Virus record (IMG/VR): IMGVR_UViG_3300030107_002709
Location: 1-64,000 of that record
Length of the DNA: 64,000 nt
Origin: a virus
Direction: 5' to 3' (one strand)
In this document: one piece after another, positions 25,449 to 29,253 of the stretch
Numbering within the stretch: position 1 is the stretch's first letter
Layout of the letters: every line of letters begins with the position of its first letter
Made by a program: the position numbers and the translations under genes
Notes under the pieces: model-generated
Database searches by the model: none
The model's input: only the letters and a program-made list of their open reading frames with translations
What the model was told of the DNA's origin: nothing

Positions 25449-25808
25449 CTCTGCTTGTGACGGTTGAAATGCTGGTCCAATAATTTTTTGTCCGATTGGA
25501 CTAACGATGAAAGATATAATAGAAAGAGCACCAAAAATAGTCCACATTTTCTTTTCCATGACCCTAAGACGGTCATCAACCTTTCGTATATCTCTTTCAC
25601 AACCCCTCTTTATATCTAGTGCTTGACGGTTTACTTCACGATGGACTGACTCGATCTTCTCAAAGAGAACACCATCAATCCTATCTTGCTTGTCCAACTT
25701 TTCATTGTGGACGGCAAGAAGGTTTCCCATCTTAACTGAATTGTCTTGGAGAGTATCAACTACTTTCTCCAGCCGCTCTATTATAGCAGCGTTGATACTC
25801 TCAGCCAT
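25437..25808 (-). CDS. coiled-coil protein with C-terminal transmembrane helix
   Basis: Heptad-rich N-terminus, hydrophobic WTIFGALSIISFIV. Confidence 0.7.
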   Translation of the reverse strand: MAESINAAIIERLEKVVDTLQDNSVKMGNLLAVHNEKLDKQDRIDGVLFEKIESVHREVNRQALDIKRGCERDIRKVDDRLRVMEKKMWTIFGALSIISFIVSPIGQKIIGPAFQPSQAELTK

Positions 25809-26530
25809 TAGGTGTTGCGAATTGCGAAATCCAGAGCAGACTGGAAGGTTGACGCATCCTTATTCAACATAAATCTATACTGCTGTTGTTGCTCGTCACC
25901 CAATTGAGCATAGGCAGCTGCTATCTTCTTAGCAGAGAAGTTATCTAAATTCTGTTCGGACTTATCAGCAAAAGTAATCTTAGCAAATTCTGTTTCTCCT
26001 CTAGGATTAAGTTCTGATGTCGCTACTTGTAATGCTACATCTAAAGCATCTTGTGTCGCTGTACTTTCAGTCATAATGTTATCACCTGTGTGTTCCACTT
26101 CATTCTTTTGTAATTTTTTAGTTTGACTAGAAGCTTTCTTCTTGAAGTCAGATAGACGAGCCTTCATAAGGATGTCCATTTCCTTAGACTTGTCTTGCAT
26201 TCCTTTCTTAGCTTGGTCTTTCTTTTTTTGAAGTTGCTTCTGCCTCTTCAATTTTTTCATTTGACCAATCTGCTTTTGAGCACGTTCTGTTTCAGTAGGT
26301 GCTGCTTCAGAAATAGTTGTTTCTAGATCTTCTTTCATTTTCTTACGCTTTTGTATACGAGAGAGCATAGTTTTAGCACCTTTAGTGCGACCATCTACCA
26401 TATCCTGATTCGCTTTTTTATATTTGCGAGCAGATTTAGCATTAACAAATACGAACGCTGGAGGCATACTAAGAGCAGCACCATCGCCAGCCATCATCTC
26501 TTTTATATTAGATTGAGTTGACGTAGACAT
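25808..26530 (-). CDS. hypothetical protein (basic/coiled; possible head-internal protein)
   Basis: Lys/Gln-rich, DGRTK motif; in a late operon. Confidence 0.7.
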   Translation of the reverse strand: MSTSTQSNIKEMMAGDGAALSMPPAFVFVNAKSARKYKKANQDMVDGRTKGAKTMLSRIQKRKKMKEDLETTISEAAPTETERAQKQIGQMKKLKRQKQLQKKKDQAKKGMQDKSKEMDILMKARLSDFKKKASSQTKKLQKNEVEHTGDNIMTESTATQDALDVALQVATSELNPRGETEFAKITFADKSEQNLDNFSAKKIAAAYAQLGDEQQQQYRFMLNKDASTFQSALDFAIRNT

Positions 26531-27700: not shown

Positions 27701-28294
27701 TTATTTATAATATTTGAGAGCTGCTTCATAATAGTCACCTATATTATGGTCAGCAACTCCATCAAAACGAGTATCTTTCTCGTCCTCTAGTTTGATAACT
27801 GGATGAGTGTGTACATAGCCAGCGAGCCAAGGAGGAGTCCCTGGAACAATGTCATCACCATGCACAAACCGAAGATGTTCAAGATCTTTGATCCTCTTTC
27901 TAAGCTTACGTCCACCTGGTCTAGGTGAACCAGCAGTTACAAGTGCAATATTCTTATTGCCTGACTCCCATAACAAGTCTGCAATAAGTGTTGCGGTAGC
28001 TCCACCAAGAGAATGACCTGCAATAACAAGCTTTCTCTTAGGATCCAAACCTTCATATGCTACCACTAGTTCTGCTAGTGTCCTGTTAGCATTGTTCTTG
28101 AATCCTCTGTGACAATCGTCACGTTTAATAAGAAACTTCAGATTGGTTACCCAGTCTGTAGTCTCATTAGTTCCTTCAACTGCAAGAATGGTATGACCTT
28201 CCACCTTCCTACTAACTAGGAAGTCTTGCTTATGTGGATACACATCTCTACAGCACTTAAGTGCTTCGAGTATTGCCTCTTTTGCTAAAGTCAT
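27701..28294 (-). CDS. class 3 lipase-like alpha/beta hydrolase
   Basis: HRGF, GHSLGG nucleophile elbow, GSPRPG, DIVP, DH: full Ser-Asp-His triad. Confidence 0.85.
   Translation of the reverse strand: MTLAKEAILEALKCCRDVYPHKQDFLVSRKVEGHTILAVEGTNETTDWVTNLKFLIKRDDCHRGFKNNANRTLAELVVAYEGLDPKRKLVIAGHSLGGATATLIADLLWESGNKNIALVTAGSPRPGGRKLRKRIKDLEHLRFVHGDDIVPGTPPWLAGYVHTHPVIKLEDEKDTRFDGVADHNIGDYYEAALKYYK
27702..27709 (-). promoter_or_regulatory. late promoter TATAAATA
   Basis: Exact T4 late consensus 40 nt upstream of the Ig-domain gene. Confidence 0.8.
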
Positions 28295-28314: not shown

Positions 28315-28321
28315 TATTTAT
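28315..28321 (-). promoter_or_regulatory. late promoter (ATAAATA)
   Basis: 21 nt upstream of the lipase start. Confidence 0.65.
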
Positions 28322-28467
28322 CCCTTCACGTATATATCTGGTCCTTTCTTTGGGTTCTTCTGATCTTTACCATCGTCAATACGAGGCATGATCTCAACTG
28401 TCTTCTTCTTTTTAGACTTGCCTTCTTCTAGACCCCATCTATCATGTGCAAGCCCTTCTACTTTTTT
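28318..28467 (-). other. putative -1 frameshift site and 47-codon extension frame
   Basis: A_AAA_AAG (28461-28467) immediately before TAG; -1 frame open to TAA at 28318 with no early in-frame start; stem-loop 5 nt downstream. Confidence 0.6.
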
Positions 28468-29009
28468 CTAGAATAACTCATTATTTTATCGATGGTCTTC
28501 TGCTTCTTAGACTCACATGCTGCTTCTTCTTCAACTACTGTGCCTTCTCTCTCTGCAGCTGCTTTCTCCCATCTCTCTTTAGTTATAGTGAAAGTAGTCT
28601 GAGTCATTTCACTAAGTTCTGTAAGAATCTCTTCTAACTTAGCTTCTAATTCTTCTCTAGTTGCCTTCTTCTCAACTTCAACCTCTTCTCTCTTAATAGC
28701 AGTCTGCAAATGCTTTATCTCAGCACCATGTGACTGCTTAATCTTTGTGCTATCAGGTGCACCAGCATTAGCCTTAGGATCCTTTGTACTATCATCATCA
28801 GTGTTAACCACTTTAATAGTAGGGATAGTTTCCTTATCAAATTCAGGCTTAGGTATAGTACCTATTGGTGTTTCAATAGTAGCAGGTTCCTCTTTGATGG
28901 TGGTTCCTTGGAAGGTATTTCCATCCATCCACTGTGCATATGATTCGATTAGTGCTTTAGAATAATCATCATTATGTTGCACTGATGTTGTAGGTGCTTG
29001 CTTGTCCAT
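28458..29009 (-). CDS. acidic hypothetical protein (possible head-internal protein)
   Basis: 183-aa ORF with TATAAATA at 29037-29044 upstream. Confidence 0.75.
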   Translation of the reverse strand: MDKQAPTTSVQHNDDYSKALIESYAQWMDGNTFQGTTIKEEPATIETPIGTIPKPEFDKETIPTIKVVNTDDDSTKDPKANAGAPDSTKIKQSHGAEIKHLQTAIKREEVEVEKKATREELEAKLEEILTELSEMTQTTFTITKERWEKAAAEREGTVVEEEAACESKKQKTIDKIMSYSRKK

Positions 29010-29253
29010 GAGTAAAAAAGGCTGTTCTTCTTGGTTTATTTATACTTTCATTGACTTCTCTTATGTCCCTCACCCAAGCTCTAAACATTTCATGGGCTTC
29101 GGAAACACAAATAACATAGTTCGGTCCAGTGCGGATTATCTTCCCCTTGATACCAGTGTTAACATTCATCACAGTCTGTCCCTCAGTGAAGCATTCCTTC
29201 TGTCTGAAGTTCTGTCTTACTGCTTGATTTTTAATATCTCTAAATGTTTTCAC
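28972..29253 (-). CDS. small beta-rich hypothetical protein coupled to the nucleotidyltransferase
   Basis: F.EG..V....TG..GKIIR.GPNYVIC SH3/KOW-like pattern; start overlaps upstream stop. Confidence 0.7.
   Translation of the reverse strand: MKTFRDIKNQAVRQNFRQKECFTEGQTVMNVNTGIKGKIIRTGPNYVICVSEAHEMFRAWVRDIREVNESINKPRRTAFFTHGQASTYNISAT

Follow-up and report, generated by a model that had tools for sequence, protein, structure and literature searches.

The window analysed here, the whole stretch of 64,000 nucleotides (nt) at positions 1 to 64,000 of the IMG/VR virus record IMGVR_UViG_3300030107_002709, carries on its minus strand a late gene of a T4-like cyanophage (open reading frame 1, ORF1; 28458..29009) that ends on the slippery heptamer A_AAA_AAG. 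A preliminary description of this DNA had proposed that a -1 frameshift at the heptamer gives two products, of 183 and 230 amino acids (aa), and our analysis supports that proposal through a conserved heptamer, selection on a -1 frame that lacks an early start codon, a hairpin whose pairs covary, and a homologue in which both parts are fused. We put at roughly 85% the probability that evolution has conserved a genuine programmed -1 ribosomal frameshift here; the signals and their conservation are shown, and the actual shifting of ribosomes is inferred from them.

According to this reading, most ribosomes would finish ORF1 at its TAG stop, giving an acidic 183-aa protein. A fraction would pause over a hairpin 5 nt downstream with two Lys-tRNAs on AAA AAG, and these paused ribosomes would slip one base back to AAA AAA and resume at GTA (Val) in the -1 frame. 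The shifted product would be 230 aa long and end in a basic 47-residue tail with the motif VE(I/V)MPxIxDG. Related phages would handle this junction in three ways: by frameshifting at the majority of loci, by a separate downstream gene whose ATG overlaps the stop (ATGA) at others, and by a plain in-frame fusion.

Reading the sequence confirmed the reported end of the 183-aa frame. ORF1 closes with ...ATG AGT TAT TCT AGA AAA AAG TAG, where the heptamer (28461..28467, minus strand) stands in the X_XXY_YYZ phase and the zero-frame stop (TAG, 28458-28460) lies directly 3' of it. The same junction in the -1 frame reads TAG AAA AAA GTA..., with the TAG closing that frame immediately 5' of the slip site. 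From there the extension (28321..28461, minus strand; VEGLAHDR...DIYVKG) is translated as VEGLAHDRWGLEEGKSKKKKTVEIMPRIDDGKDQKNPKKGPDIYVKG over 47 codons, up to a TAA at 28318-28320 on the minus strand, 24 nt 5' of the next gene's ATG. Window ORF1 and extension show no stop-start overlap, the overlapping -1 codon being GTA, which is not a start; the first ATG, GTG or TTG comes 24 codons further on, at codon 25 of the extension, in agreement with the start-less frame originally described. The conserved core of the extension, VEIMPRIDDG (28369..28398, minus strand), hereafter module C, was delimited by an alignment of 33 extensions (A5) and a PHROG match.

Downstream of the heptamer, after a spacer of 5 nt, RNAfold predicts a stimulatory hairpin (28414..28455, minus strand) and reproduces the pairing that had been proposed, namely an outer stem of GGGCTTGC (28448-28455) with GCAAGTCT (28414-28421) around an inner TAGAT-GGG-GTCTA hairpin (stem 28437-28441/28429-28433). 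The predicted free energy is -14.3 kcal/mol (z ~ -4.3 against dinucleotide shuffles), which places the post-heptamer segment within the most stable 3% of 55-nt segments across the window's own ORF1. No Shine-Dalgarno-like stimulator could be read 5' of the window's heptamer.

On its own, the heptamer is not above chance in the window, where AAAAAAG occurs 12 times against 15.9 expected. Just two of these 12 copies stand in canonical phase within a long ORF, the one at the junction and one at 26228, and the copy at 28461-28467 is the sole one that stands at the end of its ORF, with a long -1 frame opening from it and a hairpin behind. The other in-phase A_AAA_AAG (26222-26228, minus strand) lies in a Lys-rich 240-aa gene (ORF 25808..26530; phrog_4187); its -1 frame ends after four codons and no hairpin follows (-6.1 kcal/mol), and it is probably an unprogrammed slippery site that would give no more than a truncated by-product.

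We then compared this junction with those of relatives. IMG/VR holds 348 relatives of ORF1 and 171 of P0135, the fused homologue described below, which represents a second family; we read the best 80 of the former and, from the best 80 of the latter, examined 36. The survey comprised 101 loci (the window, MH319764, IMG/VR loci and 16 cultured phages), of which five ran off the available sequence, and gave 74 distinct junction contexts. Sixty of these end in NNA AAA AAG followed by a stop (TGA 22, TAA 20, TAG 18), and every one of the 60 opens a -1 ORF of 31-167 aa containing [VILA]E[IV][MLI]P, the core of VE(I/V)MPxIxDG. Nine cultured phages share this junction type (S-PM2, S-RIM32, Syn1, S-RIM44, S-H9-2, S-CAM1, S-CAM3, Sf-FP1 and Sf-FR1); the seven with an assigned genus represent six genera, and ORF1 identities go down to ~35%.

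The codon preceding AAA AAG always ends in A (GAA 36, AGA 10, TCA 9, GGA 3, GCA 2), while the residue it encodes varies among E, R, S, G and A. Lys codons elsewhere in the same 60 ORF1s are AAG 1457 times and AAA 803 times, and NNA AAA AAG is found at none of their 452 internal Lys-Lys pairs. By these counts the junction always has the pattern and the interior of the gene avoids it, as a functional slippery site would predict, and the constraint acts on nucleotides rather than on the protein. ORF1 has 226 homologues in all; among the 120 listed, the C-terminus is YSKK in 86 and SRKK in 10, and none of the 120 carries the extension motif in frame. Seven of the 74 contexts are neither of this kind nor of the stop-start kind described below. 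Among them, L025/L026, L113, L114 and L118 have no module-C ORF within 1.5 kb, and there the heptamer is likewise absent. Two IMG/VR contigs (L103 and L112) have the usual heptamer junction further 3' and an ORF1 that is interrupted well upstream; they are either assembly indels or decaying copies.

Selection on the -1 frame was assessed in lineages where start codons come late. The first -1 start lies 22-45 codons into the extension in many lineages, and at codon 35 or 45 in the L054, L060, L064 and L074 lineages; in these late-start lineages, extra modules (KKKGLDGKACWKGYSQRGTKMKGGKRVDNCV; QPQAVESCPKCGATPCKEH) precede VE(I/V)MP and the first start falls inside a conserved module. Between L064 and L074, the first 35 extension codons differ at 13 nt, amounting to 11 synonymous and one non-synonymous change in the -1 frame, as against one synonymous and 10 non-synonymous changes in each other frame, and other pairs behave alike. 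These comparisons indicate that purifying selection acts on the -1 ORF even ahead of its first possible start. In several lineages the -1 frame is closed 2-16 codons 5' of the heptamer.

Additionally, two pairs of nearly identical phages, L091/L096 and L092/L095, have TGA in one member and TAA in the other at the ORF1 stop, which is GTG versus GTA in the -1 frame; their extensions are otherwise conserved (four synonymous and one non-synonymous change in the first pair, 13 and two in the second). Judging by these swaps, the overlapping GTG, present at 22 junctions, is not needed as a start.

Nearly every heptamer-type lineage has a stable predicted structure that begins 4-7 nt past the heptamer. 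Over the 55 nt that follow the heptamer, the mean folding energy is -14.6 kcal/mol compared with -8.7 kcal/mol for segments of the same ORF1s, and 33 of the 60 junctions rank in their own top 5%. The second family shows the same pattern (-17.5 versus -9.3 kcal/mol; 15 of 20 in the top 5%). Measured identically, junctions of another type, at which a separate downstream gene begins on an overlapping ATGA, gave -8.0 versus -9.5 kcal/mol, with 0 of 7 in the top 5%.

Covariation was examined on aligned junctions. The VK.A.VEVMP type gave 34 ungapped sequences; in these, pairing is kept in 81.3% of cells, compared with 29-62% when the partners are slid, and double changes occur at 6 of 14 pairs. Pair 18-51 (A-U in 18, U-A in five) joins the third bases of Ala and Gly codons, and pair 15-54 (G-C in 15, C-G in five) likewise lies at third codon positions; none of 500 shuffles matched the observed covariation score. 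As far as aligned sequences can tell, the hairpin shows covariation at synonymous positions. The alignment (A4) of the CUUG/CAAG stem type, which is the one most like the window's, leaves out the window's clade and L054/L055, which have their own registers; L089, also in its own register, was kept and counted as unpaired. This type pairs in 91.4% of cells against 23-50% with slid partners. Within the window's clade, three of four sequence changes in the hairpin affect unpaired bases or a pair that stands alone, and the fourth (in L048) costs a terminal G.U pair and leaves a 7-bp stem. In the S-PM2 subgroup (L028, L030, L031 and L033-L036), GGAGG or GGAAG is found 6 nt 5' of the heptamer, where it also encodes Lys-Glu-Glu and might take the place of the weak hairpin as a stimulator; we considered an upstream Shine-Dalgarno stimulator as a general feature and rejected it, GGAGG being confined to this subgroup.

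A further line of evidence is a homologue that has lost the heptamer. A search of 1.84 billion representatives with the profile of the 33 extensions in A5 returned 259 hits, including P0135, a 503-aa protein that matches the whole profile at residues 418-500. Its residues 190-403 align with residues 101-306 of S-H9-1 ORF1 (41% identity, E 3e-33), and its residues 423-502 with residues 28-116 of the downstream ORF2 of the same phage (51%, E 2e-20). P0135 is known from one sequence only, on an 8-kb IMG/VR contig (L123) whose gene order matches that of the window, with an RNA-ligase-like gene, a cytidyltransferase and then P0135. Its junction reads ...SDWRSQITEKK-NS-MVEINPKIEDPE..., coded ...ACT GAG AAG AAA AAT TCT ATG..., and the heptamer is gone. 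By alignment, P0135 joins both parts exactly where its relatives carry the slip site.

Of those relatives, we examined the 36 with a match that extended far enough; three ran off, one is the in-frame L123 and 32 are of the heptamer type, so that 32 of 33 readable second-family ORF ends read ...W R x E x x E K K, with GAA AAA AAG as the last codons before TAA or TAG; L147 has one extra codon, with 3 nt inserted directly after the heptamer and both frames kept. All 32 loci continue in the -1 frame as V.GPVEIMPEIDDP...KKMPK... for 54-256 aa, and all 20 distinct second-family junctions have predicted hairpins, of -13.7 to -24 kcal/mol. A separate look for longer proteins that contain the window's 47-aa extension scored none, a negative that the tool itself rates as weak evidence.

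Several observations weigh against a programmed frameshift. The CUUG/CAAG stem type has one covarying pair (G-C in five, A-U in four), with 27-32 of 500 shuffles scoring as high, and the clade of the window has a stem (GGGCTTGC/GCAAGTCT) that lies 1 nt off the register of the GGTCTTG/CAAGACC type and hardly varies; covariation support for the stem type nearest the window's is moderate. The S-PM2 subgroup, whose predicted hairpin is weak, contributes most of the unpaired cells in the 34-junction set. Start codons are also at hand in places: 22 of the 60 junctions open the -1 frame on a GTG overlapping TGA, and in the S-PM2 subgroup a GTG or ATG lies 4-9 codons into the extension, so that reinitiation could contribute in both cases, and the Met of VE(I/V)MP, almost invariant overall and present in 33 of 33 aligned extensions, is a possible internal start, which in the window would give only a 23-aa peptide. 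A stand-alone downstream gene with its own ATG occurs in seven cultured phages, and fusion is thus not obligatory for function. Finally, the contigs that cross the window's junction leave room for rare insertions of A in the mRNA.

These start codons are the basis of the rival that survives best, which we nevertheless consider unlikely. It holds that no frameshift takes place and that the -1 ORF is a separate small gene, translated by coupling, in which ribosomes end ORF1 and restart on the GTG that overlaps its stop or on whichever GTG or ATG follows. For the window this start would be the ATG in VEIMP, and the hairpin would only hide it. The stand-alone genes speak for such coupling: in S-RSM4, S-H9-1, S-MbCM7, ACG-2014e, S-CAM4, S-WAM2 and Sf-CH1b, which have no heptamer, a free-standing ORF2 has its own ATG overlapping the ORF1 stop, begins MKTFKQLREECGC... 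and continues into the same VE(I/V)MP module. GenBank, too, lists separate small coding sequences (CDSs) in eight of the nine heptamer-type cultured phages, where the -1 ORF is entered as a hypothetical protein of its own, with a start that differs between records; it is not annotated in Sf-FP1. At the remaining 38 of the 60 heptamer junctions, however, the overlapping codon is GTA, a non-start, and GTG and GTA replace each other between near-identical phages. Coupling would also have to accommodate 35-45 codons under purifying selection before the first start, in a frame that is closed shortly upstream, and it leaves unexplained both the fixed NNA AAA AAG and the heptamer-less, in-frame P0135. 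The junctions of the ATGA type, for their part, have neither heptamer nor hairpin. We take coupling to be real, on the evidence of their sequences, for the seven ATGA phages, and it may contribute where a GTG or ATG lies near.

Transcriptional slippage would give the same trans-frame protein and is less likely again. Here RNA polymerase would add one A to a run of A6-A7; the run is seven A long at most junctions (GAA, TCA, GGA or GCA before AAA AAG) and six in the window, and one inserted A would yield exactly the -1 product. Polymerase realignment of this sort occurs on longer A runs, both in bacterial genes and in insertion sequence (IS) elements, but for bacterial RNA polymerase to slip efficiently 6-7 A is a short stretch. 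Neither the heptamer's phase nor its terminal G ever varies, features relevant to tRNA re-pairing and not to polymerase, and the hairpin 4-7 nt downstream would not yet be transcribed at the moment of slipping; its position fits ribosomal pausing. Two RNA-library contigs lack an inserted base, a weak argument since contigs drop rare variants.

The length of the A run itself can be checked in independent assemblies. The same junction is found in 11 close IMG/VR relatives (ORF1 protein identity 89-96%), and it is crossed without indels by the DNA contig X14 and the RNA-library contigs X12 and X16, all from other studies; this Logan evidence consists of assembled contigs, from which rare A-insertion variants would be dropped. 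The extension of the window's clade has three indels, in a Lys run (+3, +6 and +3 nt), all multiples of three. Relatives with an altered A run that fuses the frames, which the preliminary description had named as an observation that would count against it, were seen at 0 of the 60 distinct heptamer junctions. Judged from these sequences, the A-run length is no assembly error. That the junction is a sequencing artefact, homopolymer runs being error-prone, or the relic of a decaying, unexpressed downstream gene, as the 47-aa extension might suggest beside extensions of up to 256 aa in relatives, is very improbable given the identical junctions in these relatives and in contigs of other studies, the indels that keep the frame, and a VE(I/V)MPxIxDG motif kept at all 60 junctions. 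The -1 ORF of L002 measures 166 aa, suggesting that the window's version has lost modules. We also rejected the idea that a deletion in a free-standing gene, like one of 163 aa in MH319764, left the -1 ORF behind, for in MH319764 that ORF too lies in the -1 frame behind the same heptamer.

Turning to the proteins of the proposed frameshift, ORF1 matches phrog_4359, a family of unknown function (E 3.5e-27; profile positions 1-157 of 262), and the extension of the window matches phrog_11250, also of unknown function (E 2e-4), to which the L002 extension gives E 7.7e-14. The two parts differ in charge, ORF1 being acidic (pI 5.0) and the extension basic, with a pI of 9.35. An AlphaFold2 model of ORF1 from 35 sequences (pLDDT 59.6, pTM 0.19), of a quality too low for fold comparison, has an N-terminal helix, a long disordered middle and long C-terminal helices, and ORF1 is accordingly modelled as largely disordered with three helices. 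Within module C, the E, M, P and D are invariant across A5. Pfam gave no match above cut-off for the window's ORF1 or extension, and no transposase domains; for relatives it returned only DUF7201 (S-H9-1 ORF1, 40 bits) and DUF3008 (S-PM2 extension, 26.6 bits). A search of the ESM Atlas gave no usable match.

The ORF1/extension family is a mosaic of small modules, placed on either side of the junction depending on lineage. One of them, CWKGY...NCV, lies 3' of the slip site in L054, L060, L064 and L074 and in frame inside ORF1 in L025 and L028-L043, and it is also present in at least seven further families of PHROGs; shuffling of small modules from one side of the junction to the other seems likely. 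An LEE site resembling gp21 cleavage sites, which the preliminary description had pointed out ahead of the basic tail, did not prove to be a conserved feature. LEE is confined to the window's own clade, and other lineages have WEETLSE, SCSEES and the like.

All DNA and protein matches of the window are to T4-like cyanophages of the family Kyanoviridae, and its own lineage is known solely from marine metagenomes and single-cell amplified viruses. ARAGORN found no tRNA genes in the 64,000-nt window. The neighbourhood of ORF1 runs from an RNA-ligase-like gene (phrog_455) through a cytidyltransferase and a small phrog_4808 gene to ORF1, an esterase/lipase and a Hoc-like head protein. The motif TATAAATA, which we take to be the T4 late-promoter consensus, stands at 29037..29044 on the minus strand, 27 nt 5' of the ORF1 ATG, and recurs 25-30 nt 5' of that ATG in 66 of the 74 junction contexts (52 of 60 heptamer-type, 14 of 14 others). 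This conservation suggests that ORF1 is expressed late and bears out the earlier label of a late protein. The further late promoter said to overlap the TAA of the extension is not supported, the sequence there (GATAAATA, 28315-28322) being a 7/8 match. Late expression and the nearby Hoc-like head gene point weakly to a virion or head-associated role.

Among the neighbours, the esterase/lipase (27701..28294, minus strand; phrog_21992, E 2.7e-71) is the next gene after the extension. Both the window and MH319764 (L002 3407..4000) have it between the extension and the Hoc-like head gene, and it shows 78% nt identity to that of P-SSM2. Cultured phages with the ORF1/ORF2 pair have just a small T4-GC 424 gene at this position, and the esterase/lipase gene looks like a lineage-specific insertion. 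The 93-aa phrog_4808 gene (28972..29253, minus strand) is also present in the 16 cultured-phage records; GenBank labels it 'ribonucleotide reductase alpha subunit' or 'NrdB' despite its ~90 aa, which looks like a propagated misannotation. A phrog_4808 domain is fused to cytidyltransferase-type proteins in the PHROG profiles phrog_395 and phrog_455, and a phrog_4808-type domain stands N-terminal to the ORF1-like part in the second family (P0135, L124-L183). Such fusions to neighbour-type proteins suggest adjacent genes that work together.

The mechanism proposed for ORF1 has close parallels. The dnaX gene of E. coli, which makes two products, gamma and tau, from one gene in a set ratio, also combines A_AAA_AAG with a 3' stem-loop a few nt downstream. 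Its shifted frame stops almost at once and gives the shorter protein, whereas in ORF1 the zero frame stops and the shift would make the longer one. An upstream Shine-Dalgarno-like stimulator lies ~10 nt away in dnaX, whereas here GGAGG occurs only in the S-PM2 subgroup, at 6 nt, and the dnaX protein is not homologous to that of ORF1. In the IS3 family (IS911, IS150), A_AAA_AAG or a similar site with a downstream structure likewise fuses two ORFs, orfA and orfB, and both the short and the fused products exist. The IS3 slip site, however, lies within a longer overlap and serves a transposase; that of ORF1 abuts the zero-frame stop.

Among phages, programmed frameshifting has been described chiefly for tail assembly chaperones, along with a small number of capsid or tail genes. 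The tail assembly chaperone G/GT of lambda-like and many other tailed phages resembles ORF1 in being a late gene with a -1 slip site at its 3' end, where a minority of ribosomes add a C-terminal extension from the next, overlapping ORF, and its parts, too, are commonly annotated as two genes. G/GT sits between the tail tube and the tape measure, whereas ORF1 lies between the cytidyltransferase and the Hoc-like head gene. In the part of the PRFect article that cites an earlier paper on the point, T4-like phages are given as making their tail chaperone forms without frameshifting. ORF1 and its extension belong to phrog_4359 and phrog_11250, and not to G/GT chaperone families. The closest comparison within the family itself is the ATGA stop-start coupling used by the homologous pair at the same junction in seven cultured cyanophages, from which the window and 59 other junctions differ in tolerating GTA and in having a fixed heptamer and a stable hairpin.

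None of the 16 cultured-phage GenBank records annotates a joined CDS at this locus. Our literature search, which covered sources outside subscription journals and supplements, found no description of a frameshift in ORF1 and no statement on the protein in virion proteomes. The mechanism is a classic one, A_AAA_AAG with a hairpin, and the case of this gene is new and unannotated. For a recoding specialist, a textbook mechanism makes for moderate surprise; the interest lies in a well-supported, widespread candidate in a gene type other than tail chaperones or capsid proteins. If the frameshift is real, what dozens of reference genomes show as a pair of 'hypothetical proteins' is one two-product gene, and cyanophage proteomics and annotation pipelines miss a protein. 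The occurrence of frameshifting, ATGA coupling and in-frame fusion at one homologous junction would be a natural experiment on the evolution of expression ratios.

More speculatively, the slip site could be a fixed 'docking point' for swapped cassettes, a view that we hold tentatively and think somewhat doubtful. A disordered late protein would then be made in bulk as a short form and sub-stoichiometrically as a long form with variable cargo, at a ratio that could be retuned. The cassettes may include the CWKGY..NCV module, a CxxC..C..H knuckle, the VE(I/V)MP core and an AKYERMVKHIKK..YATAWK module, and ATGA coupling may retune the ratio to 1:1 and in-frame fusion to all-long. If this were true, frameshifting, coupling and fusion would form a natural series in which they replace each other at one junction, and much of the ocean's most abundant myovirus group would make a trans-frame protein that is at present unannotated.

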